NCBI GenBank assembly: GCA_015680685.1
Contig: MNCI01002616.1
Location: forward strand, 192,378-256,377
Source of the DNA: Gnetum montanum
Taxonomy: Eukaryota; Plantae; Gnetophyta
Length of the DNA stretch: 64,000 nt
Direction of reading: 5' to 3'
Shown here: in pieces, positions 9,896-56,300 of the stretch
Layout: every line of letters begins with the position of its first letter
Position numbering within the stretch: position 1 is the first letter of the stretch
Translations under genes and position numbers: made by a program
Notes under the pieces: model-generated
Databases searched by the model: none
The model's input: only the letters and a program-made list of their open reading frames with translations
What the model was told of the DNA's origin: nothing

Positions 9896-9900
9896 GTTTT

Positions 9901-10172: not shown

Positions 10173-10486
10173 CATGAACCATTTCTGTCTACATTTTTGA
10201 TTAGCACCTAGTCAAAACTCTGGATGTTCTAGAGAGCATAACAAGTTCTTAGTGTATAGCAAGCTCCAACGTAGCGAGTGTAGCGCTAGAGTTGGCCATT
10301 TTTAGTAGTTTTCACACTTACCATTTTTTTCCCCTGCATTTTCATACTTAGCATTTTTTTTCTTTCATTTTTACACTTATCCATTTTCCTGCTACTGGTA
10401 TATTTAGTCATTTTTTTTCTTTTTTTTTCTTTTTCAAAGTTAGCCATTTTCTACAAATAGAAACTTTCACAACCCAATTTGTGAAT

Positions 10487-17076: not shown

Positions 17077-18784
17077 TGTAGCGACCGAAAACATCAACAG
17101 CTGGAAGAACGCCAAGGTCGACAAACACAACAGTTCCAACCCCATGCTCGCGGGAGAGCAGTGTTGGATGTGTGCGAACACGGGGTGCCCTAAACGGTCT
17201 GGTTGATCAGACAGAGACTTACATCGACGTCGATATAGCCTTTTGCAATATAAACTGTACAAGCTGCGAGATGGTGCTTATGGGTAATTACAGTGGGAAA
17301 AAGAAAGGGACTAAAAAAATGCAACAATAATGTGAAATAGTGAATAAACATAAGTGTGAAAATGATATGAGACGATGCTTGAAGGTAAACAAAAAAGAAA
17401 TAATACAAGGAAGCCAGATAGTAAAAAAGAGATAACAAAAGATATAGTTAGGAACATGCACCACTTCAAAGCTACAAATCTATCTAGTTAGGGCAAGGAA
17501 CATTCAACTGCATGATGTGACGAAGTGCAGAAAGTTTCGAGAGTGACCAAAGTGTACCGGGAAACAGGAATAGCTGTGCACTTGGGCACAGACTTCACGT
17601 GTATACAACACGGGCAAGATCCTACCAAGGTGGTAGAATGAGACCCTGGGCTTTACGCCAACTGAGAGAAGTTCCTTTTACAGATTGCTGGCCTCTCTTT
17701 TTCTTTCCCTTATTATGAGATTGCAGGTATTTCTCTTTGTTTGTTTCAATTCAGGAGACTTCCCTTTTCTCTTTCTTTTTTTCTTCGCGAACCCTTTTTG
17801 TGCTATTTCACAGGCTATTTATAGGACTGAAGATAAGCAAAGGTGACCGTTTGAATACTTTGTTGTTGTAGACTTGCACCAACTTACTAGCGTTACTCGA
17901 GTCATTTGTGACTGTTGAGCTTGCAAGACCGTTGTGATGCGAGCAATAACTGCGATCCTACCACGTTGTGATTATGCCGCTAGCTCCTAGAGGCATGTGC
18001 CAACGGTTTGATTGAGGTGGAGTGCATTTATGTTGCATGGCCACCTGCTTGTCGCACTACGTTTTGCAACGTGGCTTGCTTATTGTGGTGTAGCACCTTG
18101 CCGCGTGTCCTGCCGTACGTCACATACTTGCTACATGATGCTACGCCATGTAGCGTAGCGTAGTGTAGCGTAGCATAGCGAATGGGACAATTTTGTTGAT
18201 TTTTAGCTTATTCTTCCATAATGCAAGTTCTGTGGACTTCGCTAATTTTTCCTTTTGAACCCCTTCTGTTCCTTTCCGCAGGATTGCTACGCCTTGCTGC
18301 GCCATGTAGCTCAGTGTAGCGTAGTAGCAAACATGGTCCACCGCTTCCTGGTGAGAAGGAACATCATTGCAGAACTTAAGATTGGACAAGGGAGGTGAGT
18401 AGTGAAGTTGTTGCTATGCTACGCCATATGTCATTGCATAGCGTAACATCTCGTTCCGCCATTGTTTTCTGAGGATTGCTACGCTACAAATCGTAGCGTA
18501 GCAGGCTTTGTGACTTAGAAAACATGCTAAACTGCTTCTCCTGTGCACCTAGGCTACTGTCCCTGATTCTGGACATTATTTTTGAGTAGGCTACTGGTTG
18601 TTCAGACTACTTTGGTGGGTGAGTGGGTTGGTACGGAAACCGTCCATGCCTAATGTAGAGAATTTACTGAACTGGCCATCCTGGACCTAGAACGTTCTTT
18701 TCCTAATGGATTTTTGTGGTGTCGTGCGGTCTACAAGAGCCTGGTGAAGCCAAGATGACCCTGCATTTTATTTTAGGTGTTTCA
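17077..18784 (-). repeat. 3' LTR of element D
   Basis: TGTAGCGACC...TGTTTCA on the plus strand; direct repeat of 33805-35513. Confidence 0.95.
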
Positions 18785-19784: not shown

Positions 19785-20065
19785 ACCCAGTTTAAGATCT
19801 TAGTAGACTAGGTGTTGGTTTAGGGTCCCAGCAGACCGCTGTGTCGGTTTGAGGTCCCAACGGACCGTACACACTAGTTTTACATCGTGGAGAACGTGCG
19901 ATGCCATTTTATAGTCATAGTGGACTAACAGTGCCATTTTTACATCGTGGCGGATAGTTGCTGCCAATTTACCATCGTAGCGGATGCTGTTTGGCGCTGC
20001 TAGTTTATCATCATTACGAACGCTGACCGGCATGGCTGCTAGTTTATCGTCATAGCGGACGGTGT
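19785..20065 (-). repeat. Post-pol tandem array, element D
   Basis: Minus-strand units such as CGTCCGCTATGACGATAAACTAGCA; also reads as ORF 19800-20078. Confidence 0.85.
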
Positions 20066-20084: not shown

Positions 20085-23000
20085 TTAGATGTAGTATGGC
20101 TTGAGGTACATGTGGTTCACTAGGTTGGCAAACTCGTTGTTGTCCATGTCCGCCAATTTCAAAGCTCCATTCCCAAAGGCTTTAGCGACCATGTAAGGCC
20201 CTTCCAAGCTGGCTGAGAATTTACTCACATGCTCATGGGTGGCCTTGAGGACAAGATCTCCCTTCTGCACTTGTTGTCGATGCAGATCTGCACGATGCTT
20301 TTTCCGTTGTCTGTCTTGATAGTGCTTAATTTGTCTTAGTGTCTGCACGTGTTCCTTCTCCACTGAGTCGAGGTCGATGGCTCGCGATTCATTGTTCTGG
20401 GCTTCACTCACGACGTTGGACAGGATCATCTGGAGTGAGGGTACTTGTAACTCAAGAGGTAACATAGCTTCAGATCTGTAAAGGAGACTGTAAGGGGTCT
20501 TACTTGTCATGGTTTTGCAAGTTGTTCGATAGGCCCAGAGGACATAAAGTATTTTCTCGTGCCACCGCCTCTTGCTGTTGCTAAGCATCCACTTCAGTAA
20601 GTTGATGATGGATTTATTTGTAGCCTTCGCCTGTCCATTTGCCTACAGATAGTAAGGGGAATAAAATGATTGTTTAATGCCCAGGTTGCTACAGAAAGCC
20701 TGGGTTTCATTGTCAGTCAGTCACAATAGTCACAATAGTCATTGGTAACCCAAACCTAGTTACGATGTTATCGAGGATGAAGTGGCAGATTTGCTGGGAT
20801 GTCATTTTTCTTAGGGTAATAGCTTCCACCCACTTAGTAAAATACTCTGTGGTGGTGATAATGAAGCTATGCCCTGCGGAAGACTTAGGCATGATAGGCC
20901 CTATGAGGTCTAGTCCCCATCGTTGGAAAGGCCACGTAATTTTTGTAGGGTGTAGGTCTGTAGGCGCTATGTGTATGAGATTTTCATATCTCTGACATGT
21001 GTCACATGTCTTGACTTTCGACAGGCAGTCGCACTCCATGTAAGGCCAATAATACCCTAGGTGTCTAATTTTTGCTGCCATAGCCCTAATTGCTATGTGT
21101 CCGCTGCACAGTCCTTCATGAACCTCATTAGCTACCTTCTGTGCCTGCTCACCACCCACGCATGCCAGCAATATCCCATTGTAGGATCATTGGCATAGGG
21201 CATCATTTCCTATGAGCACGTATTGCTGGATGTGCTTGCAGATTACATCTCTATAACCCAATGTCAATTCACCTAGGAGTTCGCCATGCTGCAAATATGC
21301 TTTAATGTTATCGTACCATTCCGAGGTGTCTGCAGTGTCAACAGACACCACGTGTTCTGCTTGAGTGATAGGTTCTGCGCATTCTACGATCACAGTTGGC
21401 CAGTTTGCGAAGGAATGCGATGGGATGTTTAACGCAAGGGTAGCTAAGGCGTCTGCTATGCCATTCTTGCTGCGTGGCATGTGTTGCACATCAGTGATCG
21501 CGAATTATTTCAGTAAAACCTTTGCTAGGTAGCAGTAGGGTTGCAGATGCATAGCCTTATAGGTGTAAACTTCAGTGATTTGATTCACCACTAGTTGTGA
21601 ATATCCCCAGATCGCCAGGTGTTGTACATGCAGTGCGCGGGTCGTTGAGAGGCCTTTGAGTAGCCCCTCGTATTCCGCCACGTTGTTAGTGCATGGGAAT
21701 GCGAAGCAATAAGAGGATGGATACATTTCCCCAGAGAGGAATGTGATTACGGCAACGATGCTACCTCCTGCATGGTTGAGGCACCGTCGAAGTGTAGAAT
21801 TTCCTTGAAATGCGGTGGGATGATGGCGACATTGCTTACGTATTCGTCTAGGAACTTGGGATCGATGACTACCTGGTCATCGACTAGCGAGTCCGTAAGT
21901 TGGGTCGCTATGGCTTGGCCTTTTGTTGACGATTGGCTCACATAGTGTAGATCAAATTCTGTAGTTATGGCCTTCCATTGGGCTATCCTACTACTTTCGT
22001 ATAGGTTGTCGGTGATAGCCCGGAGTACATTGCTTTTGCAAATGATATTGGTTGTGCTGCGGAATAGGTAGTGCCTCCACCTTTTTAGTGCAAACACTAA
22101 GGCTAGGAAATTCCTTTTCACCTTGTTGTATTTTTCCTCATATGATATTAATGCATGGCTCAGGTAATACACTGGTATCTTAAAGCCATCATCTCGCTTC
22201 TGACATAGCAGTGCCGCTATGGATGCATCAGAGGTGGTGAGTTATATGAAGAAGGGCTTGTCCCTCTGCGGCAGGTACACTATTCGTAGGTGTGAGAGTT
22301 CTTTCTTTAGGTTGTCAAAGGCTTGTTGACATTGGATTGTCCACTTGAAGTCAACTCCTTTTCTCAGAAGGTGTTGCATGGGGTGTAACTTATCTGTCAG
22401 TCTTGCTATAAACCTTCAAATGAATTGCACTCTACCTTGTAGACCATGTAACTCTTTTAGGTTTGTGAGAGGTGCTAGGTTGATGATAGCCTTGGCTTTT
22501 TTTGGGTCCACCCATATTCTAGCCTCCGATACTACAAATCCTAACATGCGTCTGGTCTTTACTCTGAAGATGCATTTCTTAGGATTAAGATGCAAATCGT
22601 GCCTTTGAAAACACTTGAGAACTAATTCTATGTTGCGCAGGTGATGGGCCACCTCTTTAGACTTAACTGCTATATCGTCCACGTAATCATTAATCGTTTC
22701 TAGGATGTGGTTACTAAAAATGTATGTCATGGCTCGCTGGTATGTCGCCCTAGCATTCTTGAGCCCAAAGGGCATCATGGCATAGCAGAAGGTTCCCCAT
22801 GGAGTCATGAAGGTTATTGACAACTGGTGTTCCAGGTTGATGCAGATTTGGTTTTATCCAAAGAAGCCATCCATGAAGGATAGCAAAGCATGCCTAGTCG
22901 TGGTGTCGATGAGTTGATCGATGCTCAGTAGTGGAAAGTTATCCTTGATCGTTGCCTTGTTCAAATCTCGGAAATCTATACACATTCGTAGCCCTCCTAT

Positions 23001-23558
23001 TTTCTTTGAAACCACAATGATGTTGGACACCCATTCTGAATAGTCAACTGCACGGATGAAGCCTACTTGGTACAACTTAGTGATTTTGCCCTTCACGGCT
23101 AGCACAATTTCTGGCTTAATTTTACAAGCCTTTTGCTTGACTGCATTTACGTGGAGGTCTAGGATGATATTATGTTGAATCAACCATGGATCAAGACCTA
23201 GCATATCTTCATATGACCATGCGAAGACATCAATGTGTTCTTGCAAGGCTTTAACTATGCCCTCATGTATTTTTGCATCTAGGAGAGAGCTAAGTCTTAA
23301 TGTCTTTACCTCCCTTCTTGTAGTGGTTATGGGTATCTCGATGAGAGGATCCTCAGTTACATCCCCGGCCTCCAAATCTAGGATGTGGACCAAGTGTTTG
23401 GGCAAATCTGGGGATGCTTCTAAGGTTGCTATAGCATTAATCACGATCGACTCCCAATTAATCGCGTCGGGGTTTAATTGTCTTGCGAGCTTTCCTTGTG
23501 GCCCTATTAGTATTAGAGGTGCGGACAAGGCATGGTGGGTTTCCATTTCTTGCTTAAC
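20085..23558 (-). pseudogene. pol: pol (RT-RH-aRH-INT) of element D
   Basis: RMCIDFRDLNKA, MPFGLKNA, YVDD; LHFDGAS, TNNVAEYEGL, NGIADALA (aRH); HEGLCSGH/CDTCQ, WGLDLIGP, EGPY; several stops and frameshifts. Confidence 0.95.
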
Positions 23559-24272
23559 CTGCCATCACAAGATGAGAGCCTGGGTAAGGATAACGAGAGA
23601 TTGTGCAGAACATAAATCTGCAAAGCAACATCGAGATGCGACTTGCTAAATAAGGCGATGTAAAGATTAAGAGTTTGCTTGCTCGGGGGCGTGGCGTACC
23701 ACCCAAGTGCAGGGATCTAAGATAGTTGAAGAAATAGACATTGTTGATGTAAAGTGCAAAGTTGTATATGGATGCCGACCTACTAGTTGCCATTTTTGGG
23801 TTACCTTATTGTGACATGCAAAGCTTCACTGCACTAAAGAATGATAAAAGAGATGGAATTGTGAGTGCGAGACGTATCGTGCGGTCAATGTAGGAACAAA
23901 GGCATGAAATTGTTAGGGAATATTCTACTCTTATGTCGAGGCATGCCAGGTGATTGCTGATGTAAGAAGCGTAATTACTTCGTTTGACGTCATTGCGGAC
24001 TACGGCCATTACTAGTTGAAATTGTTGTCTTTGAGCCTTAAGGAATATAATGATGCTAGGTTGGTTAGCTTAAGGTCTTTTCTGACCTTTAATCGAAAAC
24101 AAATGTTATCATATTATTTTTATTTTTGAGAAGGTGAGTAACTGACTTGAAGCGTGCCAAGGTTTAAATGCTAATAGTGTCGTCATGTCGTGGTGAGCAT
24201 GCTACGTCGCACGCCGTGCCCTACCTTAATCGGAGAGAGAGAAAGGAAGTTTTTCCCATTTTGCTATTACTA

Positions 24273-24285
24273 CCATAAATAGGGG
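24273..24285 (+). promoter_or_regulatory. TATA-like box of the antisense gene in D
   Basis: CCATAAATAGGGG ~160 bp upstream of the ATG of MAPK; conserved at 53190-53201 in F with the same upstream GGAGAGAGAG. Confidence 0.6.
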
Positions 24286-24432
24286 TTGAATCCTAGTAAT
24301 TTCACTATTTTTACCCTAGAAGCACAGAATCCTGGTCAGAGCACTTCGGCGATTTTGGGTTGCGGAGTCACTATGTGAATCCACATCGAGGCAAATTTCT
24401 AAGGCGAAGGTGGTGAATCTGCTAGCAGGGCT

Positions 24433-27400
24433 ATGGCTCCTAAGACTCAGTTGGTGCTTGCGAAGGTCGGGGAGGTGAAGAAGACCTTGAGACATGGGCC
24501 ACGGGTGCGTGTTCCAGTGAGGGAGGGCACGCTATTGACCCAGTGAGTTTTTATGTCTCTTCCATTCCTTTCTCCTTGCATCTTCTTCCCTCTTTTGCTC
24601 TGGTTTTATGTCTCATTTGTTTTTCCACTGGTATTTTCTGCAGCTACGTCATTTTAGTTTTGGTGCTGTCACAGTCTTGCTTTCTTTCGGTCATTGCTAT
24701 TGTGCAAGGGTCTCGTTGCGGTTGCATGCAAGGCTATTACTACCGCAGTTGTTTCCGCGGCTACGAGGCCAAGGTCCTTTAAACTACTGAACCATGAAAC
24801 CTTCAGGAGGGGGGTTTAGTTACATATGACATAAGTGTGTATTCCGTTTGGGCCTACTATTAGTTATCTTATTGCTATGCCAAGTTATTCGCATGTTCTT
24901 GTTATGATAGGCTTTTGCATCTTTGTTATGCTATGATGAACCAGGGACCATGCTATGCTACACTTATGGTCGGCTAGGTGTTGTTATGTTGCGCACGTAT
25001 TATGTTCATATTTGATGTCACTATCTACTATTTCCGTTATGTAGAGTAGGGCCAAGGTCTAAATTGATCGTTTTGGATTTGGAAGGAGTCTTGTGTTATG
25101 TGGGCAAACCTATGACCAACATTCCCCCTCCCCCAATACGTTTGGGAGATCAAGCAGTTTGGTTTATGGATGGGGCACGAGACTTCTTGCAATTCCTCCT
25201 CAGCCATTTTAGTCTCATGGTATGGTCCTCCTCGAATGAGACACGAGCGTCTGACATAATATAGGCTTTGCTGCTAGGGGCAAATCGAGGCATCTTGAGA
25301 TATCATTCTGACGACGTGACTTCAAGCAGGCTAGGAGTAGGGTCTACCCAACACTCCATAGGGTTGAGGTGCTTGGCCTAGATTTGGGACATGCCAAAGT
25401 ACCAATGTTATCATCCTTACAACACATTGTACCTCACGCGCCATATGGTGACATACTTTCTAAACCCACAGGGGACTGTTTACTGTGTTGGCGGGTGAGT
25501 TTCATGTCTTTATTTTGCTGGGCGACATTGACTATGCTCGGTCGAGCATTAATAACATGAACTTGTCACCAGGTTCTATCTTAATGACGACGGGGTTCAT
25601 GATCAACCGGATGAATTGGCCACAGCACAACTAGCCCTGCAAAAATTTGCCTCGGCCAGGAGCCTACAGGCGGGCGTGATTGCTCTTTGCGGGGAAGGAT
25701 ACCATTCCCACCTATGCACACTCACCTCTTTCTATAGTACTTTCAAGACAAAGGGTTGGCTAGACAAGGAGTGGAGAGAACCTTTTAAGAAAGTTACACT
25801 CGACATAGTCTTAGCAGCGGAACTCCCCTATTCCCTTCATCGTATAGGTCTGGTGGGTTAACAAGTGGGTGTCATTGTTTTTTAAGATATGCTTTATGAT
25901 TATTGTCGCAGGAGCAAAGAAGCCCCGTGAAGTGATGGTGGTGACTACTAGAGGGTAAAGGGGAAACATCTACTTCAAATACGGTGAGGTATCGGCAAGC
26001 CAGAGCTGGTTGGAACGAGGGGCTCCGGGCCCCTTGCTTAGAAGAATCCAGATGGCTAGGCTTATGAATTTGTTTATGGCACCGAATCTAGGCATTATTG
26101 CTGCCGAGATGATTTCCCTGGTCAATTCCTTTTCTGGGCAGGCAAGTCGCTTTTGCACATACATGCAAGCTGTGTGGATGGTCATTGATATCAATGACTA
26201 GCTATTTGCATATTTTTTTGGCATTCCTAATTATGGCACCGATGTGATGTTGAAGGGAAAGTAGGAGTTGACCCTCCTTAAGCAGCATATTGAGGAGTGG
26301 CTGAGGCTCACCAAGGAGTGGAAAGGGTTCCCTATGGAAAAGCTTAAGGACAGTCCTGCCATGGGGATATACCTGGTCTTTCGTGCTTGTGCATTCCCTC
26401 AACTGCTCACCCAAGGAAAAGTCTTGGGGCTTGAGCAGGCTTGGGTAATGCGGGAAGTTGTGGAGGAGGGGGCCCATTATAATTGGGCCAAATTCCTCTG
26501 TAGTGTCTTGCAGGGGGAGATTTTTGGGCTCCGTGAGCAAACAAAGTCCCATTCTAACATACACTACGCCTTTTACATTGGCTATTTAAAGCACTTTGCA
26601 AAATTCCTGGTGGTCCAAGAGGATGGGGTCTAGTCTGAGCTAGACCATGATCAGATTCCTAAGCTGTGGATTCGACAAGTCTTTCGGATCATGCAAGCCC
26701 AGGCTCCCCCAAAGATGGTAGGGGATTTGTTTTCTGTAATGACTAAGGATCTGACAGTTCATAGCGCTTATGGACAAGACAGCGTAGGGGAGACTCCCCC
26801 TACCATACTTGGCAATGCGACCTAGGCTGATTGTCTTATGGCTGAGGCCATTCCTGCAGAGTTTCTGAGAAAGAGACCACCCCCTGCTAGGGAAAGCCCT
26901 CATGAAGAGGATCGACAACTGCGGTTCAAGTTGTGGCGAACGCAACCCCCCATTGGTGATCATTTAGAATGCCAACTATTCCATGCTTAGCTAAGTTATG
27001 CATTGTGGCATGATATTAGTTTTGAATTAATCAACTTTGCTTTATTGTGTGTATACCCTTTGCAGATAGCAGAAGAAGAAGGCAAAGAAGAAGGTGATGA
27101 GGAAGTGTCGGCCCTCAGACCGGGGGTGACAAATAAAGACACGAGGGGCCCAACTTTGGAAGAGAGGGCCCCGGCTAGGAATACTGGAGCTCTTGTCTCC
27201 GGGGTAGGGGCTCTTGTCACTAGAGAGCCTCTTCCTACCAACAAAGAGGTGTCTTCTCGAAATAAGGAGGACACTTCCCTCTTGAAAGAAAAAGCACCAG
27301 CACTTGAGGTAAGAGTTCCCACGAACTTGGCTAGGCCTTCTACAAAACCTACCGTGATTGTCTTGCACCAGCATAAATCAAGACAACAGCCGAATGCAGA

Positions 27401-28743
27401 TGAGTTTAGGCTTCGGATGTACTCTATGGTAATCCACTTCAGCTATTGTTGTCATACTAAATTGTGTAACGAGTGCTACTGCTAATGTATTAGGACCTTC
27501 TCTGCCCTAGACATAGTCGTGGACTGAAATTCCTGACAAGTTTATGTTTGTTCAGGGGTTAGTTGATGACATGATCAAACACCTTCAACAGGAGGATCCT
27601 CGTGTGGGTGAGTAGGAGTGTTGACAGCTCCTATGCTTCTATGCTACAACTCTTGGACATATTGATTTATATTTTGTTAACGTGATTGCTATACTTTCTA
27701 AGCCTCTCGGCTCAAATGGGACCTAGCTCGACCTATGGAAATTGGCGTGGTGCCCACACTCTCATCCGACATGACTGAAGTGTCTCGTTGTGTATTTGAC
27801 AAGGCTTACAAATGCATCTTGCACTCGATGTGCTCCCTATGGGAATGTAGACATACCAACAAGGAATTGTGGAAGCAGGCCCATAGAAGCAAGAAAAGAG
27901 AGACAGAACTAGCTACCGAGGTGGGGAACCTCAAGTCAGGGATCGATTTCCTCTTAAACCGTAGTCCTAACCCTGTGGAGCTGTAAAGGGCTATGGCCGA
28001 TCACACCAGATTTTGGATTGTTGTCCATCAAAATGTAGAATCCACTCATGAAATAGTCGAATAACAGATGAAGATGGATTTGCTAGCCCAGAAGTGCCAA
28101 GACATGAAGGACATCAGTGCCAAGATCTTCGAATGGGGGAAGGCCCAGAGAGACCACAAGTATACATACAAGCAAGAAAATGAAACCCATCGAAGGCTGT
28201 ATAAAGATGCTATTGTGGAGGCATTCTCGTACAAGGCGTTTGTGAAGGCCATCGGCACTTCTGAGGCTTATGCCAAATTTAAAGAGTGGGTGGAGGTCAC
28301 GAAGTCTCCAGATTTGGGGGTTACCCTTCCTACAGGGGAGACCGCCATCACCTCCCTTTCCCTAGGGTCTCTAAAATGGACAACTTTGGAAAAGGAGAAG
28401 GTTGCCACTACGAATGCTAAACCTAATGATAGGCCTTGGATGAATATTTCAATGGAGGAGATTAAGCATCGTCTCAGGCTTGGTCTAGACCAGATACCTC
28501 TTGCGACGAACGCAGGCTCCCCTCAAGTTAGTCACTTTGATGCTTTGCTACAACTGTCCTTTATCGCATTTGTTGTCCCCACTAACTACTTTATCTTCTG
28601 GGGCGTAGGCTCTTAACGAGGATGTGAGGCCTATGGAGGGAAGGAACGAGGTGTCGACGGGGGACAATATGGAAGCTGACGATGTACAAGTGGATGAGGT
28701 AGAGACAAACGGTGAAGGCAATGTGAACAGGGATCGCTTGTGA
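24433..28743 (+). pseudogene. Antisense ~8-exon accessory gene of D: NIF/FCP1-like HAD domain, PMD/Transposase_32-like domain, acidic linker, coiled coil (~1,100 aa predicted)
   Basis: Predicted exons 24433-24542, 25045-25494, 25573-~25850, 25912-26955, 27066-27399, 27494-27607, 27703-28526, 28609-28743. The first two junctions were checked and are in frame. Splice positions are shared with the F copy. Confidence 0.8.
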
Positions 28744-28894
28744 GAGCATGAGGGTGGGCCCCCCCTCTCTCTCTCTCTTTTTGGAAGAATTTACAGACAC
28801 TGCCGATAGGCGAAAAAATTTGACTGAAATGCATTACTTCAGAAAGGAAAATGATCTCGTATTTTCATGCATGTTATGTAAAGTTTTCGTACTC

Positions 28895-29095
28895 TCGTAT
28901 GCCAGTTTTGGGCCATTTTGGGTCTTTTACGTAGTTTTAGGCCATTTCAGGCTATTGTATAGTGAATAAATTGAAAGGTGATAATGCTAGTTTTAGGCCA
29001 TTTCAGGCCGTTTGTTGGTTTCAGGCCATTTCGGGCTATTACGTAGTGAATAAAGTGAAAGGTGATAATGTTAGTTTTAGGCCATTTTGGGCTGT
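28895..29095 (-). repeat. GGCC-N6-GGCC-TAAAACTAGCA array downstream of protease in D
   Basis: Plus-strand GCTAGTTTTAGGCCATTTCAGGC-like units, ~5 copies. Confidence 0.75.
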
Positions 29096-29240
29096 TTGCA
29101 TATTATGCCAAAAAAATGACACTCTGGCGGGCTAAGTAGAGAGCGAATATGTGAGGATGGAAACTGGGTGAGAGGTCACAAAGTTGCTATGCTACACGTA
29201 GTTGTCTCCTGACCTTTCATGGGTTGAAAGGGACGTAAGG

Positions 29241-32200
29241 TCAAGGAATTTCACTAGGGCCTTCGCTCGTGCTACCGTCCTCTGCTTGAAAGGGCATCTC
29301 CACCCAAACGTTTTCTACCTGAGGGTCGCTTTGTTGGGCCGATCCCTTCACTGTACAATTAGTGCATGCATGAACAGGCACTTCATCTTCAGAGGTTGTA
29401 ACCTCTGAACCTTGCTCTGTGTTTAGATTACTAATTTCTTGCGTTACCACCCCGTCGCCATGGATTATCACCTCTCTACCCTCGTATGGTAAATGGATTT
29501 CCTGGTGTATATGCGAGGAGACTATCCTAAGTTGTGCTAACCATGATCTCCCCAAGATTAGGTTAAACTCGGGCATTTCTTCGACTACAAAAATGTTGTG
29601 TCTGTGGGGAGCTCATTCCATGCTATGAAGTTTACATGAACTGTGCCTTTTACTAGGACACATGCCCCGTTGAAGGACTGTAGGCACGGCATCACTGTTG
29701 GTTTGATCTGGTCGACCAATCCTAGTTTCTCTATGATAGGCAAAGAGATGACATTTGTGGCTGCCCCATCATCAACATGCACCCTTCGGATTTGGTACTG
29801 ACCAACCTGAATTGTGATGAAGAGTTCCGGGATCTTGCTTAATGGCTTTGTTGCTGAAAGTTAGTGGAGGTGCGGACTCCATGGGTACGAAGGGAAGTAT
29901 GACTGAGTGGATTGTATTCTCGTCTGTTGGCATGTTTTCATCGATCGAGATTGCCGTTAACATGCAGACCAAAGCCTCACGGTGAGGGGTTGATGTTATG
30001 ACTAAGTTATATAGGCTTAGCATGGTATTATTTTGCCTTAGGGCTTGCCTAGCCTGGGTGAGGGCGTTCAAGAATTCTTGGTCGCCCATCTGTTTGACCC
30101 CCTCCTCCTCGATTCGTCCTAGAAGACAAATCTCCTGAGGAGAGACTACCCCAGACCCAGGTTCAAATGTTTTGTGAGAGGATGTCACAGGTTGTGTGCT
30201 TGCATCGACCTTCGTCCTTGGTGATGAAGGTATAAATTCAAATGGTGAAGGCATAGTTTTGGAGATGCTTTTAATAGTATTCCTCTTCGATGCCTTGCCC
30301 ACCAGGTAGGTTTATCGCGTTGTAGGATGAGGGGGTCATTTAATGTTGTTGCATGGAATGGGGGCTGTCAAATACGTTGGTCTCCTAATGACGAATGGAG
30401 CTAGAGGTGTTAGTGGACGGGGTTGCACAACCCCGCCAACGGGTGGTGCAAAGGCAAATGCTCATGGTGGGACTTTCAGGATGAAGGGCGACCACGGGCT
30501 TGGGCCAGCCATTGGTGGCGTTGGAACACTACGCTGAGGCACGTGAATCAAAAATGGCTAGAAGGGTGGAGTGGGATCATTGTTAATACTGATGGCATTG
30601 ATGATGTAACTGGCATTGTTTGCATTGAGGGGGTCGGTATAGACATACATGGATTGGTTTTCAGGACATACTAGGCTACTTTCATCTAGCACCAACTGCC
30701 CTAGGTCAATCAATCTTTTGATATCGTCTTGCAAAGATAGACAATAATCTATGGTATGACCACATAGTTGATGGTAATTGTAAAACCTGTCTAGCCTAAA
30801 ACCTTTAGGAACTGGAGGTTCGTTGGGCAGGGCTAAAGAGGGATTTCTAAGGAGCTCGCAGTAGCATCAATTCCTCATGTTTGCTTCTTCTGACATCCAT
30901 TTGTGTTGAATGTATCCCACTGCCAATAGTTGCTTCAGGAGTTCTGAAGGTTTGAGGGGCAGCAGAGTATATTTTGAATGATCTTTATGTTTGAGGTTAG
31001 GTTTAGTGTATGCAGATGTCCTGGGTGTGGGCGCGGCAGGTTGTAACGCTTGGCCAGGCCTAGGCCCTGTGTCGGCTGTAGGTACGGTTTGTTTCTTGTT
31101 ATTCTTGTTTCCGTTGTTGCCATGTTTGGGCTTAGCCTTAGCTTCCACAGTAGCCACCATGGTCTTTGTGGCTTTACCCTTGTCCTTCTTTGCAAAACTA
31201 TTCCTGTAAGTGATATAAGGCAGGTCTTTACTTACCTCGGCAACATCTTGTATGCTTTTCATCTAAGCAAAATCTTGACTAAGTGAGCATGGAGCAAGGT
31301 AATATAGTTTTGACTTAATGAAGTCATTCACTACACTCTTAAAGATGGCTAACAAATGAGCCTCTGCGATAGGTTCACGGATTTTGTTAAGGGTTGCGCT
31401 CCATCGTTGAATGAATTTTTGGACTAGTTCTAGTGGGTCTTACTTCATGCTCATCAGCTGATCCAACATGTTTTCTGGCTTCAAGTTATACTTGAAGCGT
31501 GTCACAAACTGGGTCAAGAGTTCTTCCAAAGCCAAAATGGATGAACGTGGCAATGCGTGATACCAATCTAGGGCTTTCCCGGCTAGGGACATGGCGAAGA
31601 CGCGAATGATCATATGCGGCCATTGTTGTAGTAACAAAGATTCTGACCGGAAAGTGATAAGATGTGTATTGGGATCTCCTTCCCCATCGTACTTCATGAA
31701 GTGTGGGAGAGACATCCCCGGTGGTAATATCAAGGCAGGGATTGCAGGGTTGATGGGGTCATCTTGGTAACAATCCATGACTTGTACCATATTGGACCCA
31801 ATAGCTTTGAGGTGTTTTACTTCCTCGATTAGGGTTTGAATAAGCTGAAATGCTTGGTCCAGACCTGGGGATGTTGTAGACGGCTGAGGGATTGTAGAGG
31901 CAACCCCTGCAGGTGGCATGGTAATAGTGGCAATTTGACCCATCGGCTATGCCATTGGGGCCACCCCTACTAAAGGTGTTGTTTGCGTTGTCCACCATCT
32001 GGTGGATGGTATCACCGGAGCGGTAATAGCAGGTTGAGCTACCGGGTAGGCTGTTTGGATCATCGGTGGGACCCCCCATGGCCCCATGTCAGTTTGTGCC
32101 ATTTGGGGGGTCAAGTAGACCTAAGGGCGAGTGTAATGAGACATCTGCAATGGTTACGGAACAGACAAAGAGGTAGACAGAGGCCACCACATGGATGGGC

Positions 32201-32978
32201 CTGGGCCCATCACAGTGGGTGGGATGGTCACATATGTAGGAATTGGTATGGGAGTTAGGTGCGGTTGTACAGTAGGTATAGTGTGGACATGCGGTAGAGT
32301 AGCCATGATAGGTGTGTTGCATGTTGCGGTAGCATGCTGATAAACGACTTGCCATGGCATAGTTGCTGCGAGTGCAACCACGTGATAGGGGTGATGAGGT
32401 GCTAGGAACGTAGCATGGCTACCCACTGTAGTTGCAGTTGTAGACTACTGAAGCGTAGGTGCGATGGCGAAGGGAGTGGCGATAGGTAGTGGGTTGGCTC
32501 AGAAGGAATGGGTAGGCGGGACAGGGATGGGGTTGGCTAGGCCTCCCTCATCAAATTGGAAGTCGAGTTCCTCATGCCCATCTTGAAAGGCATCATCCTG
32601 GTTGGACGTTGTGTCTTGTTGCCCCCTAAGCCTTGTCAATTGGATTAGTTGATCTATAAGCCTTTGGCTTGCTTGTGTCAAAGGCAGGGAAATGCCCTCG
32701 TTAGGAACGAATTCCTCCCTATTGCAGTAAGCAAACTAGAAGGTACATTTTTCTTTGAGTTCATGTAAATCTAAGGGTAGGTTAGCCTGCACCTTCATGC
32801 AAAGGAAATTTTAATGCTCGTGTTGCTGGGCTAGGCCCTCAGGTCCTTGGTTTTGGATCCTGAGAGACCAACATGTTTCTGGTGTTGGATTCAACCGTTC
32901 TTCGACACTAGTAGTGCCTCGGGCTACGAAGGGCACCTCCATGTTGGGAATATCGACAACGGTGGTAGTAGAAGTCAT
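29241..32978 (-). pseudogene. gag: gag-protease of element D
   Basis: ATG at 32978; KYDGEGDPNTHL...ALDWY; YHQLCGHTIDYC knuckle; HVDDGAATNV...NLILGRSWL protease. Confidence 0.9.
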
Positions 32979-33804: not shown

Positions 33805-35513
33805 TGTAGCAACCGAAAACATCGATGGCTGTAAGAACGCCAAGGTCGGCGGACACAATAGCTCCAACCCCGTGCCCATGGGAGAGCGGTGTTGGGTGTG
33901 TCTGAACATGGGGTGCCCTGAATAGTTTGGTCGATCAGACAGGGACTTACATCAATGTCGATATAGCCTTTTGCAATATAAACTATACAAGCTACGAGAT
34001 GGTGCTTATGGGTAATTACAACGAGAAAAAGAAAGGGACTAAAAAAATGCAACAATAATGCGAAATAGTGAATAAACGTAAATGCGATAATGATATGAGA
34101 CGATGCTTGAAGGTAAACAAAATAGAAATAATACAAGGAAGTTAGATACTAAAAAAGAGGCAACAGAAGATATAGTTAGGAACATGCACCACTTCAGAGC
34201 TACAAATCTATCTGGTCAAGGCGTGGCACAATCGGTTGCATGACGTGACAGAGTGTAGAAAGTTCCGAGAGTGACCAAAGTGTACTGGGAAATAGGAATA
34301 GCTGTGCACTTGGGCACAAACTTCACATGTATACAACATAGGTGTGATCCTACCAAGGTGGTAGAATGAGACCCTAGACTTTACGCTAGCCAATAGAAGT
34401 TCCTTTTACAGATTGTTGGCCTCTCCTTTTCTTTCCCCTATTGTGAGATTGCAAGTATTTCTCTTTGTTTGTTTCAGTTTAGGAGACTTCCCTTTTCTCT
34501 TTCTTTTTTTTTCGTAGACCCTTTTTGTGCTATTTGATAGGCTATTTATAGGGCTGAAGGTAAGCAAAGATGACTGTTTGAATACTTTGTTGTTGTAGAC
34601 TTGTGCCAACTTACTAGCGTTACTCGAGTCATTTGTGACTGTTGAGCTTGCAAGACCGTTGTGATGCAAGCAATAACTACGATCCTACCACATTGTGACT
34701 GCACCACCAGCTCCTAGAGACATGTGTCAATGGTCCAATTGAGGTGGAGTGCATTGATGTCGCACGGCCACCTGCCTGTCGCGCTGTGTTTTGCAATGTG
34801 GCTTGCTTATCGTGGCATAGCACCTTGCCACGTGTCTTGCCGTACATCACATACTTGCTACATGATGCTACACTACGTAGTGTAGTGTAGCATAGCATAG
34901 CATAGCGACTGGGACAGTTTTGCTAATTTTCAGCTTATTCTGCCATAATGCAAGTTCTGTGGACTTCGCTAATTTTTCCTTTCGAACCGCCTTCTGTTCC
35001 TTTCTGCAGGATTGCTACACCTTGCTGCGCCATGTAGCTCAGCATAGCGTAGCAACAGACATGGTCCACTACTTCCTAGTGAGAAGGGACATGACTGCAG
35101 AACTCGAGATTGGATGAGGGAGGTGAGTAGTGAAGTTGTTGCTATGCTACACCATATGTCATCGCGTAGCGTAACATCTCATTTCTCCATTGTTTTCTAA
35201 GGCTTGCTATGCTACACATCATAGCGTAGCAGGCTTTGTGAATTAGAAAACTTGCTGAACTACTTCTCCTATGCACCTAGGCTACTGTCGCTGATTCTGG
35301 ACATCATTTCTGAGCAGGCTGCCGGCTATTCAGACTACTTTGGCGGGCGAGTGGGTTGGTACGGAACCCGTCCATGCCTAAAGTAGAGAATTTACGAAAC
35401 CGGCCATCCTGGACCCAGAACATTCTTTTCCCAATGGACTACTATGGTGCCATATGGTCTACAAGAGCCTGGTGAAGCCAAGATGACCCCGCATTTTCTT
35501 TTAGGATGTTTCA
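33805..35513 (-). repeat. 5' LTR of element D
   Basis: Direct repeat of 17077-18784; TATA on the minus strand at 34543-34550. Confidence 0.95.
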
Positions 35514-41000: not shown

Positions 41001-41289
41001 TTTTTTCAACATAGCCAACATAGCCATTCTCCACATAATTATTTTCAACATTTAACCTTAAAACCTTAAAGCAACAAAGCCATAAACAACATATATAGCC
41101 AAAACTCAAGCTGAAAATTAAAAAATTTTAAAGTGATATAGCCATGGACACACTATGTGGCATAAATATTAAGACAATAAACCAAAAATGTTAAAATGTC
41201 TAGAACTCAAGTATTGGCCAATATGGGTCATACAACATCCAAACATAAACTAAAAGAAAACATCAACAATGACTATCACATCAAGCATT

Positions 41290-44200
41290 AGGTGGTGCCA
41301 AGGGGACATCCAGAGGGGGAGGAGATGGTGCATCATCATCATTGCCTACACCATTGGAACCTCCAATATCATATGGTGCCTATGACATAACAACACCAAC
41401 CAATCAGTAACTAGCATAACTAAAACCATGACATAAAATCAGGTAAGACAAAAATTTAAAATATAAAACATAAATGTCATTAAACCTATGGGAAATCTAG
41501 CTCTACAAACTCTTTAGCAAGAAAGTGAAGGTTAGTCTCCAAATTTTTGAGAAACTAGTCTTCTATCATGTTTTCCTAGTTAATGTTTTAAAAATTAATG
41601 TCCATGTAGATGTTGGTCCTATCTACATGTATCCATGATGGAGGCTCCCATGAGACTATAGCTATAGACACCTCATCCATAGTTGTAGTAATATATGGGG
41701 TAGGATAATTAACTACTATTAGAGTTCTTTTAAAGAGGTTGAAAACACTCTCATCCTAGATGCCTTGGATAAATAGATCTCTCTTCTATTGTTTAATTAT
41801 CTTCCTCTTTATCCAGTTTAGGTATCCCTCTCAATCAACCTTATACTTATGCTTGTGATTCTTTTGTTTCTTACCCCACTCTAGGATCCAAGCACTATAA
41901 TCCTTCCAATCATGGGTCTTTTAGAAGATCAAGTCCATCAATATCTACTTCTCATGAAACTCCTTAGAGAGGGAAACCTTGTCATGGATAGCATGCTAGT
42001 AGTAGGCCCACGTGATCTCCTTACTCTTAAAGATCCCTAAGTTATTCACTTGTGCTTTTGCAAAGGCCCTATGATCCTTTAGATCTTGGATCTTCTTGGC
42101 TTACTTTTTATTATCCTTCTTCAAGGCCATAACCTATTTCTATAGAGATTCATTGGACATCTAAATCTCCTATGAAGCTTTTGTGCATGACACTACTAGA
42201 TCAATGGTAGGTTCATACAACTTCAAGGGAACATGTGGGATGTTAGGAGGAAGGTTAGGTAAAGAGTCAAACTCCATGTCTTTGGATAGGTTCCACATAA
42301 CTAATGGCACTAAAAACAACAAAAATATAACCATAAACATGATGTACAACCTAAGGTAGCCATAGCATAAAAATATAACTCATAGCAATATAACTAAGGC
42401 ATAGAAAAACATAGTTCTTACCAATCTCCGGTGTAACCTATTGTAACTAACAAATGATTTCCTTTGCCATCTTGTGCATGAATTCCATCTTGTTTGAGAC
42501 CTCTACCCATGGTTTCATCTGAAATGTGGATGTAGAGGCCTCTACTAGTGGCTCAAGAACTACAATAAGCATAACAATTGTTAGTTAAGTAAGAAACTAC
42601 GATGTTAAAAATAAAACCATAGACAACAAAGAGTAGATAATAGGTATACCTATGTTCTTGTTCTTATTCTCATTCTCATACTCATTATCATTACAAATAT
42701 CAATTGAAGGCTTCCTAGGTAGTGACTCACCGAATAAGGTGTCAAGATCATCCATATCTTGTTGCAAGAGTGCCTCCTCTACATGCCTTTTTTCCTCCTC
42801 TACCTTAGTGGCTATGCAACTCTGCTCCTCCTCCTCAACATGTGTGTGTGCCTCCTCCACTTTCCTATGTTCTTCTTTTGCAATGGCAACTTGGGCTGCC
42901 AAGTTCCATCACTTATCTATAGCCGTAACCCATTAGACAAGTTAGCACATATAGCCATAGGACATAACTAGTCTAAAACATACTTAAAATGTACTTCTGA
43001 TTACCTGATATATGGGTGGGATCTTGAAGATAATCCATTGCTTGGAGGATGGCTCTTTTACTAGTGGTGCTTTCACTGCTAGCCATTTCAAATTAGTCTT
43101 GGTAGCCTAGTTTTCCTTTACACATAACCATTGGATCCCCTTGATGTTTTTTGGAACATAAGAGGTGCCTCCCCCATGCTATCAAGGGATTCACACCAAT
43201 TAACACCAAGGTTCTTGATGGTCATAGATAAAAAATTATCCATGTCCTTTGGTGGGTTCTGAGCCTACATTGTTCAATAAAGATGTTTTATTCAAGTCTA
43301 GAAGAGTTGTTTTGGGTCCTAGAACATCCATGATCAATTCCTCTTCACCACCAAGAATTTTTTGAACCTCTTTGGATAGCCTAAAAAAATGCATAGTGCA
43401 TGTGGACTATCATAGAAGTGTCCATGCAAAGTTTGAGGATTTTCTCTTTGAGGCCCATAGCTAAGGAAGTAGCCTAGTTGAAATGAGTCTCCTATGTCAA
43501 AACCTTCTTAAGGGTCCATCCTTATGTAATGCTAACTACCTTCTTTTACAATAACAATTTAGGGAAAGGCTAAGATCTAAAAAAATAATAGGACCACTTT
43601 GCTATCAAGGACAAGTCTGGAGTAACCTTTCTAGCACCAAACCACTCCTCAAATTTTACACAATGGCCAACCTCCTTCATTGGTTTGGTAGCAACTACTA
43701 TCCCATCAGCAGGATCATCAAATAAGTAGCAAAAGGTGGACACACTAATGGCAATGGTAATTGGCATGCTTCACACTATGATGTGGAACACATCAACTTC
43801 TGCATCAAAGGTGTCGATGAAGTTCTCCATCTTTGTAGAAGGAATGATAGGGCTAGGAACCATGAATACCTCAAGAAAACCTATACACACGATGTTTTCT
43901 TGAATGTTCTTAGGCACCTGCCTCCTCAACCACTCCTGCACTAGTCCCACCTCACTGAACGTTAGGATGAAAGTTTTCACAATACATCTGATAAGGGATA
44001 TGGTGACATCAATAGAAGTGGAAGGCCCTGTAAGTAAAAGACAAGTGGTTAGCATCAGTATAGCCTTATTTAGACTATAGAACACTTAAGACCCAAGTAG
44101 CCATAAAACCTTAGTTATAATATAGAAGGCCATTTCTTTTCTTACGTTTCTTCTTCTTGTTTAGAGAAGCTTGTGCATGGCTCTCAATAGTGATATCAAT

Positions 44201-44990
44201 ATCTCTAATGGACTTGGGAGGCACCCACCAACTATGTACTATTTTGGTAGCCACACACTTCTTGTAAACATGGTTAAATGTTAAATCTGGTGAGGTTTCC
44301 TCTTAGCTATTCAAAAATAGCATGTCTAATCTTGGGTCCTTTCATGAATTCACTCAACGTAGTGTGGGTTACTACCAATGTTTGATCATTCATAATCCAA
44401 ACTTGCTCATTAACCTTGTACTTGTAAGATGTATCTAAAATCAACAAGTTAGGAATTAGGACCAAATTAAATAAAGCCAAAACATTTAAACATATAGTAG
44501 CCATGCTTACCCCTATAATCAACACATGGTGCCTCAAGGATTCTAGAATAAGGAGTGGGCTCTTTGTGCCACCATTAAAGTATTATTCATGTTGTATCAT
44601 AAATACTCTAGCATCATCCAAATGTTTGAGAGGTACCGTGCACTAATGTTATTTGCTGGCTCTCCTACCACTCGAGTCTATGGATCATCGATTATGAACT
44701 AAGTAATCATATGTGTAGACCTAGGTAGTAGGGTCTTCACTATGATCGCAACCACCTCCTTAGACAAATGTGACCACATCATCACACTAAAATTCTAAAG
44801 AATATAGGCAAGAAAATACATTGCCCTTGGGCAGAATGATAGTGACCCCTTTTCTAGGTCCATGTTAAGAAGGGGGGTGTGGGTCATGGGTTGTTTGATA
44901 CAACATAAAATGCTAACCAGCTTGATCATGATGAGGACTAGGTTTAGTAGGACCTTGCAGTGGGAAGACATCAATACTATTAGAACCACA
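41290..44990 (-). pseudogene. Divergent antisense accessory gene of element E (NIF-like, PMD-like, coiled coil)
   Basis: LIMIKLVSILCCIKQPM...FLAYIL.NFSVMMWS and NIWMMLEY.YNMNNTLMV...NP match D exon 2; VQEWLRR...FMVPSP matches D exon 4. The 5' end was not resolved. Confidence 0.7.
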
Positions 44991-53351: not shown

Positions 53352-56300
53352 ATGGCTCCAAAGAAGGAACGTACCCACTTGGCACTTGCAAAGGTTGAGG
53401 AGGTGAAGAAAACCCTAGGGTGCATGACATAAGCATGCATTGAAGCACAGGAGGACATGCCATTGACTTGGTAGGCCACTATGCTTTCTCTACTTCTTTG
53501 TTATTCTATTATCATTTTTTGTATTTGTTTTCTTCTTTGTATCCTAGTCTTAGTCATCTATGTTTTTTGTCATCATGTTGTTTTGGCCTTTAGATCGCCG
53601 CTGCCATTTTGGCCATGGTAGATGCCTAAGCGCTATGCTATCTTTGCATGTAAGGTTGCTTAAATTGCCACCACCACAGTTGTCATAACCGTGGGGGTTT
53701 AGAAATTTTAAGTTACTTGGCTTTTGAATGACATAGTGTAGGATCCTTATGAGGGTTGGGCCATGCATAATGTGATAGTGAGACATGTGTTCTATCGGGG
53801 CATATCATTAATTTCCCTGTTAGGGTTAATTTCTTTGTTGCTACGCTAGGCTATTTTCGTTGCACTATTGCTTTCATGTTCTTGCTACGCTATGTGTGGG
53901 AAGAGGGTTATGCCATGCTATATGCATGAAATGCTAGGTATTGCTATGTTGCGTGTGCATTGCATTTAGACATGATGCTGATACTTGCTGGTTGTGTTGC
54001 GCAAGATGGGGCTAAGGCCAATTTTGATTATCTTAGAAATTGTAGGGGTCCTGTGTTATGTAGGAAAACCTATGGCTGATGTTCCTCCTCCCCGTATACG
54101 TGTAGGAGAGTGGGGTGTCTGCTTCAAGAAAGAAGCACAGGAATTCCTACATTACCTCCTCCGACACTTCAGTGTGATCATTTGGTCATACCTAGAAGAG
54201 GAAGAGGCGACTGTCATAACATAAGCCATATTCCCTAGGGCAAGTCGAGGCATCCTGAGGTTTTTGACGAATGGGGCAATCATTAGCAGGCAGGGAGAAG
54301 GATCTAGTTAATACCCCACAAGGTTAAGGCGTTTAACCTAGATCTACGATATGCCTGAGTATGGTTACTACCATTCTTATAACACACTATTCGTTGCACA
54401 TTATATGGAAATGTGCTTCCAAAACCCACCAGAAACTATCTACTGTGTTGGTAGGTGAGTTTTTTGTAGTCTTGTTCCACTGTGTTGTGCGACGCTTACC
54501 ATATTGGCTAGATGCTAATGGTATTTTTTTGTTACTAGGTTCTACATTAACAAGGAAGGGCTTCATGACCAACTGGGTCTGCTAACTATAGCATAGATGG
54601 CCTTGCAAGAGTTCTCTTCTGCTAAGAACCTGTAGGTGGTGTGATTGGTCAATGCGAGGGTGAATACCACACCTACCCAGAACTATACCCCATTCCCTAT
54701 GATCAATGCAAGGGGTCTAGTTGGCTGGATGATGGGTGGGTGCAAGCTTTCAAACCAATCACTATTGACCAAGTTCTAGTTAGTCTTCTGTCGTTCCCGT
54801 TACCGTATAGGCCCAGTAGGCCAAATAGTAAGTGTTGCATGCTTAAGTGTCTTTGCAATCCTTGGATTTTCTATGTTTCTATGCTAAACGTTTTTCGTGA
54901 AAACTATTATAGGGACAAAAATGCCCCAGGAGATGATAGTGGTGATCGTCGAGACACAGAAGGCAAACATCTACTTCAATTATGGAGAAGTAGATGTGAG
55001 CCAATGCTAGATAAACGGTATGGCTTCTGACTCCTTGGTCCAGAATATCCAAAAGGCTAGGCTCATAGATCTATTCTTAGCTCCAAATTCAAGCATTCCT
55101 ATAGCTGAGATGCTCTCCCTGATCAGCTCCTTTTCTGACAAGGCCGACGGCTTTCACATGTGCATACGGGGCATGCGGGTGGTCCTTGAAATCAATGACT
55201 AGCTATTCATGGACCTCTTTGGTGTCCCCGTCCATGGCATTCTCATAGGGTCAAAGTCCAAGAGGGAGCTGACCTTTTAGAAGAAGGACATTCAGGAGTG
55301 GTTAGGGATTGCCAAGGAGCAAAAGGGGCTCCCCATGGAGAAGCTTAAAGAAGGACCCACCAGGGAGGTTTACCCTATCTTCCATGCTTGCACATTCCCC
55401 CAACTTCTTTCCCAAGGGAAGGTCCTAGGGATTGAGCAGGCCTGAGGTCATGGAGGAGGGGGCCCATTACAACTGGGTCATGTTTTTATGTAAAGGCTTG
55501 CAAACTGAAATCTTGGAGCTCCATAAGAAACTAGAGTCCCATTCCAATATACATTATGCCTTTTACATAGCCTATCTGAAGTGTTTTGCATAGTTTCTAG
55601 TGGTTCACAAGAATGGAGCCTGGGTCATGCAAAATCATGGCCAAATTTCTAGACCATGGATTCGCTAGATCCTCTAGACCACTCGAGCCCAAGATTCCGC
55701 AGAGATAATTAGGGAGTCTTTCTCTCTGATGACTAAGGATCGGGTGGCCCGCAACTTTCACGGCCAAGATAGCATAGGAGAGATGCCCCCTACTGTAGTT
55801 GGTAGTGTGTCATGGGGGGAACGTCTCATAGCCAAGACTATGGCCAGTAAGTTGTAGCAGAAGAGTCCTTCTCCAGCTAAAGAAACCCTTCGCATGGAGG
55901 AAGAGGAGGGGCAGAGACTGCAGCTTAAACTATAGAGGATGCAACCCCCCATTGGTAAATGCTTTTGTTTAATGCCCATTTTGTTATTGCCTACTATGCT
56001 AGGCATCATAGCGTAGCATAGCACCTGCTTTAAGCTAACTTATTTTGGACTAATGAAAACATGTCTCTTGACTGGCAAAGGAGGAAGAAGAAGAAGAAGA
56101 AAGCAATGAAGAGGTGTCAGCCCCTAAGATAGGGGTGACGAATAAAGACTCGAAGGCCCCAGTCTTAGAGAGAAGGGTCTCGGTCAAGAAGGGAAGAACT
56201 CCTATCGCTAAGGCAGGGGCTCTTGTTATCAGGAAAAATCCTCCTACTGACAAGGAGAGAATTTTTAAAGATGAAGAAGTGTCTCCCTTGAATAAAAAGG

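Follow-up and report, generated by a model that had tools for sequence, protein, structure and literature searches.

What occupies the space between protease (PR) and reverse transcriptase (RT) in a family of long terminal repeat (LTR) retrotransposons of the gymnosperm Gnetum montanum, and does the element have a use for it? The question is raised by a 64-kb stretch of contig MNCI01002616.1 (assembly GCA_015680685.1, positions 192,378 to 256,377; hereafter the window, whose own numbering is used throughout), in which two related elements, D and F, each contain a PR-RT spacer of 5.8 to 6.0 kb with an opposite-strand gene inside. Our analysis indicates, with a probability of about 0.92, that this Tat-type family carries a spliced, selected gene of eight exons in antisense orientation between PR and RT. 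The gene model was built by comparing D, F and a third, more distant copy, E, and was examined through substitution rates and RNA-derived contigs.

In element D, the PR-side open reading frame (ORF) closes at 29241, and the frame of pol begins again on the minus strand at 23558, a conserved AG acceptor. The eight exons of the intervening gene add up to 3,320 nt, or about 1,107 codons (Table 1). This bears out the sequence-only reading, made from the letters of the window without database searches, which had described the gap with its opposite-strand gene, a TATA-like box, a MAPK start, about eight exons with in-frame joins between exons 1 and 2 and between exons 2 and 3, and a product of about 1,100 residues. 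All seven introns have the same positions and phases (2, 2, 1, 1, 1, 1, 0) in D and F, and introns 2 to 7 of E lie at matching places. The TATA-like box, a putative promoter, sits within a non-coding block (24066-24299) matching positions 52989-53216 of F at 70.6%; neither this box nor exon 1 was found in E. At the amino acid level, D and F are 51% identical overall (49-58% by part), and E is 26-34% identical to the other two. The sequence-only reading had also placed the gene at the same position in F and E. This holds for F, which has the same eight exons, and for the presence of exons 2 to 8 in E, where the position is deduced from the insertion of F 40 nt behind the pol-type acceptor of E (46003-46004).

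Introns are richer in T (35-47%) than exons (16-30%), and eight donor-like hexamers are common to the copies on the plus strand versus two on the minus strand, which is a weak signal. Introns begin with GT in six of seven cases in D, seven of seven in F and six of six in E, and end with AG in six of seven, five of seven and five of six, respectively. Because the junctions were picked by comparing the copies, these counts are not a blind test; the ratio of nonsynonymous to synonymous substitution rates (dN/dS) and the RNA joints serve as independent tests of the model. A further small exon considered at approximately 24644-24780 was dropped, as it has many non-triplet indels relative to F and a phase clash.

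The first of these tests shows selection on the gene while it was part of the element. Across 1,047 codon pairs of D and F (the end of exon 3 and seven exon-6 codons were left out, and E was excluded as too distant), dN/dS equals 0.26 (bootstrap range, 0.21 to 0.32), with values of 0.10 to 0.33 in the eight individual exons. The other two plus-strand frames give 0.82 and 1.17, and the three minus-strand frames give 0.77, 0.35 and 1.13. For comparison, the D-F values are 0.13 to 0.20 for RT, RNase H and integrase, 0.09 for gag and 0.31 for protease. The divergence of the gene ranks like that of the protease, in which D and F are 60-66% identical and E reaches 45-48%, as co-inheritance predicts, although three copies are a weak test.

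This conservation bears on whether the gene could be a passenger, left over from a DNA transposon or a host gene, which arrived in the spacer of an ancestral element and is of no use to the retrotransposon. Seven introns and a TATA-like box of its own suggest that a gene of a cell or of a DNA transposon was captured as DNA, extra ORFs of the plant mobile domain (PMD) type are related to MULE genes (PMC4408406), and one element of the window, C, is without the gene. However, the two copies that give the low dN/dS are retrotransposons with the insertion in common, and the gene has been kept to 26-33% identity with its introns in place. In addition, no inverted-repeat pair common to the three spacers was found (longest arms, 23-27 nt at 70-78%), and no transposase family was matched in the gene pieces scanned. 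The terminal inverted repeats that could have marked the region as a transposon in its own right did not turn up; a TA-rich pair of arms around the gene of D (24233/28764) consists of simple repeat, and F does not have it. The passenger explanation has only a very slim chance: it is largely refuted as to neutrality, while its part concerning origin may still hold. The antisense gene is thus an inherited part of the retrotransposon family and not a chance insertion, as the sequence-only reading had it.

All three copies in the window are nevertheless pseudogenes. Over the 1,047 aligned codons, D has 11 internal stops and F has 23, in addition to frameshifts. Four of the stops in D and 13 of those in F stand opposite Gln or Trp codons in the other copy, which is expected from the decay of methylated cytosines. 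The observed/expected CpG ratio falls from 0.49 in the gene of D to 0.34 in F and 0.11 in E, in agreement with their ages.

The second test comes from eight sequencing runs of the same species label, which were compared with D or F; no RNA run was listed as containing D itself. In one of them, X7, 65 contigs were placed on F and two of these contain splice joints; they derive from relatives that are 80-90% alike and nearer to F than D is. One contig (contig 4) runs through exon 5 and continues at 56500-56631, and the seven letters in between fit the last bases of exon 5, so that the skipped part is 56430-56500, from GT to AG. The acceptor of intron 5 defined in this way lies 21 nt upstream of the comparison-based pick, in the same phase, and exon 6 of E (138 nt versus 135 nt) agrees with it. 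The other contig departs from F at the intron-2 donor; of the 23 letters that follow, 16 match the start of exon 3 and six match intron 2 (compared by eye; P = 2.5e-5 for one named place). As GT and AG lie on the plus strand, this RNA is antisense to gag-pol. The antisense strand of relatives is thus transcribed and spliced at introns 2 and 5. Another X7 contig spans the promoter and intron 1 and represents unspliced RNA or DNA. The depth of X7 (3 to 27 over exons 4 to 7, approximately 1 at the pol start) is a poor measure and was not counted. Other candidate signals were set aside: a first-mate strand bias in run X1 also covers pol and gag, and its library type is unclear; loose read ends at 27068-27107 in run X4 look like an unrelated low-complexity match; and a loose end at 25568 belongs to an unspliced relative.

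The location of the gene suggests how it could be accommodated. The RT frame of D and F starts at a common acceptor, AG|GTTAAGCAA, and donor-like sites in phase 0 lie at the protease end, at 29318 in D and 58571 in F. A pol-type acceptor with a pyrimidine tract is present in D, F, E and B, another element of the window. Sense splicing between these sites in D would take out 5,760 nt, the entire antisense gene included, and leave PR joined in frame to RT. In the Ogre elements of the Tat clade, Gag-PR and RT are separated by an intron, 274 bp long on average, which is removed from a subset of transcripts (PMC6317226, PMC4408406). From the arrangement of the sites, the spacer studied here is probably an enlarged sense intron of the Ogre type, a point that the sequence-only reading did not make. 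The seven introns of the antisense gene would survive retrotransposition because, in the genomic RNA, they lie in the wrong orientation for splicing. Branch-point or pyrimidine tracts with an AG acceptor also precede pol at 45985-46044 in E and 3586-3610 in B, both on the plus strand. In B, an LTR end lies about 35 nt before the pol acceptor, and positions 45882-45924 of E match 52670-52710 of F over 43 nt (79%).

An intronic position could also mean that the gene sets the balance between spliced and unspliced element RNA, through a Rev-like protein or through antisense transcription across the 5.8-kb intron, and in this way ensures export of the long genome. The gene indeed lies wholly within the predicted sense intron, with its promoter about 0.7 kb from the pol acceptor, and a review proposes Tat- or Rev-like roles and double-stranded RNA effects for antisense ORFs (PMC7264820), while partial splicing is known from Ogre. 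On the other hand, Ogre achieves partial splicing with its short spacer, no RNA-binding domain was found in the gene pieces scanned, and sense splicing was not seen in reads, which makes this role improbable.

The encoded protein offers further clues. The sequence-only reading had predicted a phosphatase-like domain, a PMD-like domain, an acidic linker and a coiled coil. The first was recovered by four tools. Exon 2 of D matches Pfam PF03031 with an E value of 8e-5 (22.8 bits, cut-off 21.8), with F and E below the cut-off (E = 0.0096 and 0.059). A profile of the three exon-2 copies has UBLCP1 (3shq, E = 0.016) as its sole PDB match, the E copy, one of the three members, matches TIGR02245 (HAD_IIID1, E = 0.0042), and NIF occurs in 30 of 30 Atlas matches. 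These profile matches show exon 2 to encode a NIF/FCP1-type HAD domain, nearest to UBLCP1. Homologues of exon 2 were found in none of 162 candidates, nor its alignment in any of 335.

The catalytic motifs of NIF/FCP1 HAD phosphatases are DxDx(T/V) and the motif-IV aspartates. Their loss had escaped the sequence-only reading: motif I reads DLEG, EIVG and KLVS in the three copies, and the DD of the FDD of UBLCP1, as seen in 3shq, is replaced in all three (LT, VA and VA), while the adjacent NT and NP are invariant. Since the catalytic aspartates are not conserved next to invariant neighbors, the HAD domain is likely catalytically dead; decay of the copies is a less probable cause of the changes. 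A product that is instead an active phosphatase on a host protein, for example, the C-terminal domain of RNA polymerase II or the proteasome, would require the aspartates to have been lost through decay of old copies. D retains the first aspartate (DLEG), the copies carry many post-insertion changes, and in orchids, an Ogre-like family has retained the activity of an enzyme that it captured (PMC9289625). Yet the replacement of DD in three of three copies beside unchanged neighbors leaves little room for this explanation.

The remainder of the protein is less readily classified. Exon 4 is 50% identical between D and F and 27% between D and E, and its pattern recalls PMD-type domains by eye, which is a lead; the PMD-like domain itself was not confirmed, and an AlphaFold2 model of exon 4 is uninformative (mean confidence score [pLDDT], 30.8). 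The linker of exon 5 is acidic in part, with 16-26% D+E but also 12-19% K+R. Exon 7 has coiled-coil-like heptad repeats, in line with the sequence-only reading, and weak matches to coiled coils. It has no assigned family: none of 1,047 candidate longer proteins matched, and Atlas, run on one piece, gave low recognition and no named family.

What such a protein may do is suggested by analogy. The product of gene23 in Grande elements is nuclear, and the gene has its own antisense promoter (PMC7264820). Extra ORFs of Tat elements pair PMD with a coiled coil (PMC4408406), the anti-silencing proteins of the VANC type are homologous in structure to MAIN, a PMD protein (PMC13547354), and an Arabidopsis module joins PMD to a phosphatase-family domain, which is of the PPP and not the HAD type (PMC7156037). 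By these parallels, the product may act as an anti-silencing or chromatin factor, a role that we propose tentatively and at somewhat less than even odds.

The same gene might instead encode an integration-targeting or particle factor that anchors the integration complex at a mark on chromatin or polymerase and directs new copies into other repeats. HAD domains of this class are generally known to bind phosphorylated peptides, no chromodomain was found in the integrase pieces scanned, and the elements of the window are nested: D lies in the 3' LTR of C, F in E, and an LTR before the pol acceptor of B. However, nesting is generally common in large plant genomes without a targeting factor, and the pattern comes from one window, so this role seems rather unlikely.

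Under the anti-silencing proposal, the parts could work together as follows. By comparison with Ogre and from the in-frame splice sites, the LTR promoter would produce an unspliced RNA, serving as Gag-PR message and reverse-transcription template, and a spliced RNA for Gag-PR-RT-RNase H (RH)-additional RNase H (aRH)-integrase (INT). An internal promoter near 24274 would drive a third mRNA from the opposite strand, with a predicted start site; its strand and its splicing at introns 2 and 5 are those observed in relatives. Being intronic, the antisense gene would be absent from the pol message and would not overlap the gag and pol frames. The protein would join a HAD fold, recognized by the domain searches and presumably binding phosphopeptides, to an unassigned helical domain, a charged linker and a coiled coil. 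By analogy, it could then serve as a nuclear adaptor in trans that keeps family copies expressed against silencing. In its fullest form, the proposal is that a Tat lineage has come to use the Ogre PR-RT intron as a "cargo bay" for a 1,100-codon gene with seven introns. The product would be an anti-silencing factor specific to the retrotransposon, assembled from a coiled coil and a UBLCP1-type domain that was captured and inactivated. This complete scenario is speculative and, taken as a whole, less likely than not.

Several observations weigh against a selected, spliced antisense gene in this family or against the role ascribed to it. Four raw-read runs gave no splice joint on D (53 to 219 reads each, mostly less than 90% alike, at low depth) and no sense PR-RT splice, two raw-read runs gave no joint on F, and one contig set gave nothing. 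RNA support is limited to two of seven introns, with one contig each, in one of eight runs; X7 is classed as RNA by guess, and its contigs come from relatives at unplaced genomic loci. One minus-strand frame also has a low dN/dS (0.35); it shares third positions with the gene and contains 34 and 41 stops, versus 12 and 24 in the gene frame. D and F have three internal stops in common, and a rough calculation gives about three chance-shared stops if these arise mainly from the approximately 85 Gln, Trp and Arg codons. Each copy has a frameshift in exon 3, at different places (25815 in D, 54637 in F and 44300 in E). The frameshift of F is absent from an RNA contig, and the three are probably independent decay. 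Intron 3 of D measures only 47 nt, the junction at the intron-4 donor of E is off by phase, and the sense donor candidates of D and F are offset by 12 nt when the two are aligned. Element C has neither pol nor a trace of the antisense gene (tblastx empty), and its protease is nearer to those of D and F (64% and 54%) than that of E is; C is likely an internal-deletion derivative. For the protein, exon 4 had no Pfam family at E values of up to 10 in five of five pieces, PMD included (a result for decayed copies, obtained without profile-profile search), and no PDB match; against 1.84 billion representative proteins it gave one match, over 32 residues of a repetitive protein, which was judged to be due to chance. 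No clear nuclear signal common to the three copies was found, and the proposed anti-silencing function is drawn by analogy from gene23, Tat extra ORFs, VANC and the PMD-phosphatase module.

Compared with known systems, the elements resemble Ogre of pea and Medicago in the separation of Gag-PR from RT-RH-aRH-INT by a spacer, in their large size and probably in a 5-bp target site duplication (PMC6317226, PMC4408406). They differ in that the Ogre spacer is short and non-coding, with a sense extra ORF (PMD-coiled coil) on the 5' side, whereas D has a 5.8- to 6.0-kb spacer with the eight-exon antisense gene and no ORF of at least 120 amino acids between the gag start and its 5' LTR. Extra ORFs in antisense orientation occur commonly in the region 3' of pol (PMC11963269, PMC7264820). 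Those of Retand, Grande (gene23) and RIRE2 (aORF-3R) and the antisense PMD ORFs of Tat lineages III and V share with the gene the antisense orientation, family-wide occurrence, an internal promoter and a coiled coil (PMC7264820, PMC11963269, PMC4408406). Unlike the gene of the D family, which lies between PR and RT and has seven introns and a NIF domain, they lie between pol and the 3' LTR, carry TRP28 or PMD and are described as ORFs, the word "intron" being absent from PMC11963269. The corresponding region of D, between pol and the 3' LTR, is 1.3 kb long without a 120-residue ORF, and neither TRP28 nor PMD gave a match, PF04195 included, in the gene pieces scanned.

Other parallels are more remote. 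The fungal Boty-like gene brtn is likewise an antisense extra gene in a Ty3/gypsy element (PMC8365987), but it is fungal and unrelated in sequence. Orchid Ogre-like elements also fixed a host-derived enzyme domain, the AlkB demethylase, in an extra ORF of a Tat-family element; that domain is a different one and catalytically intact, and Gag and Pol form one ORF there (PMC9289625). The D-family protein resembles UBLCP1/HAD-IIID and NIF (FCP1/SCP) phosphatases in its exon-2 matches, yet it differs in the absence of the conserved aspartate motifs and of a ubiquitin-like domain and in its fusion to element-specific domains. VANC of VANDAL elements and the MAIN/MAIL1-PP7L proteins, chromatin factors with a coiled coil or a phosphatase-family partner, are functional analogies only: no homology is shown, they belong to DNA transposons or hosts, and PP7L is a PPP and not a HAD protein (PMC13547354, PMC7156037). 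The likeness to HBZ of HTLV-1 drawn by the sequence-only reading is loose, with nearer precedents in Grande gene23, Retand and brtn. In the literature searched, which left most subscription papers outside its coverage, neither an antisense gene in the PR-RT spacer nor a retrotransposon NIF domain was found; by that literature, the position, the intron number and the domain content of the accessory gene are new.

Self-comparison and six-frame comparison show the window to be a nest of related LTR retrotransposons, with at least six related Tat-type elements or parts. D is flanked by a 5-bp target site duplication (TTAGA/GTAGA) alike at four of five positions. In a Pfam scan of 22 pieces, RT_RNaseH (E = 9e-21) in the pol of D is followed by RVT_3 (E = 1e-12), i.e., an additional RNase H, and then by integrase. 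D, F and C have a primer binding site (PBS), which may be of the tRNA-Arg type. The PBS of Ogre is that of tRNA-Arg (PMC9289625). The RT-RH-aRH-INT order, called retrovirus-like, occurs in clubmosses, hornworts, ferns, gymnosperms and angiosperms (PMC10508981, PMC13468544). By domain order, D and F are filed as Ty3/gypsy elements of the Tat clade, sub-lineage unplaced. F, also on the minus strand, begins at 46044 and extends as far as the window does, with LTR parts that are 83% alike. E runs on the plus strand from approximately 36950, is cut by F at 46044 and has its RT outside the window.

Element C (8295-36066, plus strand) is a non-autonomous relative consisting of LTR, PBS, gag-pro (10553-13855), 3' repeats and LTR. 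The end of its 5' LTR and the PBS are tandemly duplicated (9682-9941 and 9937-10196, plus strand; 89%), giving two PBS copies. Short exon-like units (pyrimidine tract, AG ... CAAG|GTA) at 8240-8291, 14369-14423 and 15138-15187 (plus strand), in the 3' regions of B and C, are possible spliced non-coding 3' exons of the sense strand. Two types of tandem repeat recur, one just behind the protease, at the 3' end of the antisense gene (28900-29100, 57940-58320 and 14200-14280), and one behind the integrase (47-410, 7110-7528, 14457-14720, 19780-20060 and 48840-49110).

Table 1. Coordinates of the antisense gene and of the element D features in the window.
Feature	Positions	Strand	Remarks
TATA-like box of D gene, CATAAATAGGG	24274..24284	+	identical 11-mer in F at 53191
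Exon 1	24433..24542	+	ATG-GCT-CCT-AAG (MAPK) start; phase-2 donor; dN/dS 0.27; 9-nt in-frame indel versus F
Exon 2	25045..25494	+	N-terminal part of NIF/FCP1-type HAD domain
Exon 3	25573..25864	+	likely remainder of HAD domain; D frameshift near 25815
Exon 4	25912..26955	+	conserved 347-residue domain without assigned family
Exon 5	27070..27399	+	charged low-complexity linker; D donor decayed (AT)
Exon 6	27473..27607	+	start set by F and RNA; D acceptor decayed; second in-frame AG at 27492-27493
Exon 7	27703..28526	+	heptad-repeat helices; conserved C-terminal helical part
Exon 8	28609..28743	+	acidic tail, stop
Antisense gene of F	53352..57773	+	8 exons, 3,332 nt; RNA joints at introns 2 and 5
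Antisense gene of E	41281..44954	-	exons 2-8; antisense to E's own gag-pro
Predicted sense PR-RT intron of D	23559..29318	-	5,760 nt, holds whole antisense gene; CAG|GTAGAA donor, CAG|GTTAAGCAA acceptor, both phase 0
5' LTR of D	33805..35513	-	88.2% over 1,710 nt versus 3' LTR; PBS next
3' LTR of D	17077..18784	-	preceded by polypurine tract
gag-pro of D	29241..32978	-	predicted start; Retrotrans_gag E = 7e-6; protease 60-66% identical to F
pol of D	20085..23558	-	order RT, RH, aRH, INT; Pfam RVT_1, RT_RNaseH, RVT_3, Integrase_H2C2, rve

For the biology of plant retrotransposons, an eight-exon antisense gene nested in the PR-RT spacer is a layout that is invisible to ORF-based surveys, and annotators should be aware that such element genes can be called host genes. 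It shows a route for carrying intron-rich cargo through retrotransposition, and NIF/HAD joins the domains fixed by plant retroelements. The gene also provides a transcribed candidate for the question of what the antisense accessory genes of plant retrotransposons do. If the anti-silencing proposal is true, the gene would give LTR retrotransposons their first counterpart of VANC, one that the family has retained since its deep divergence.

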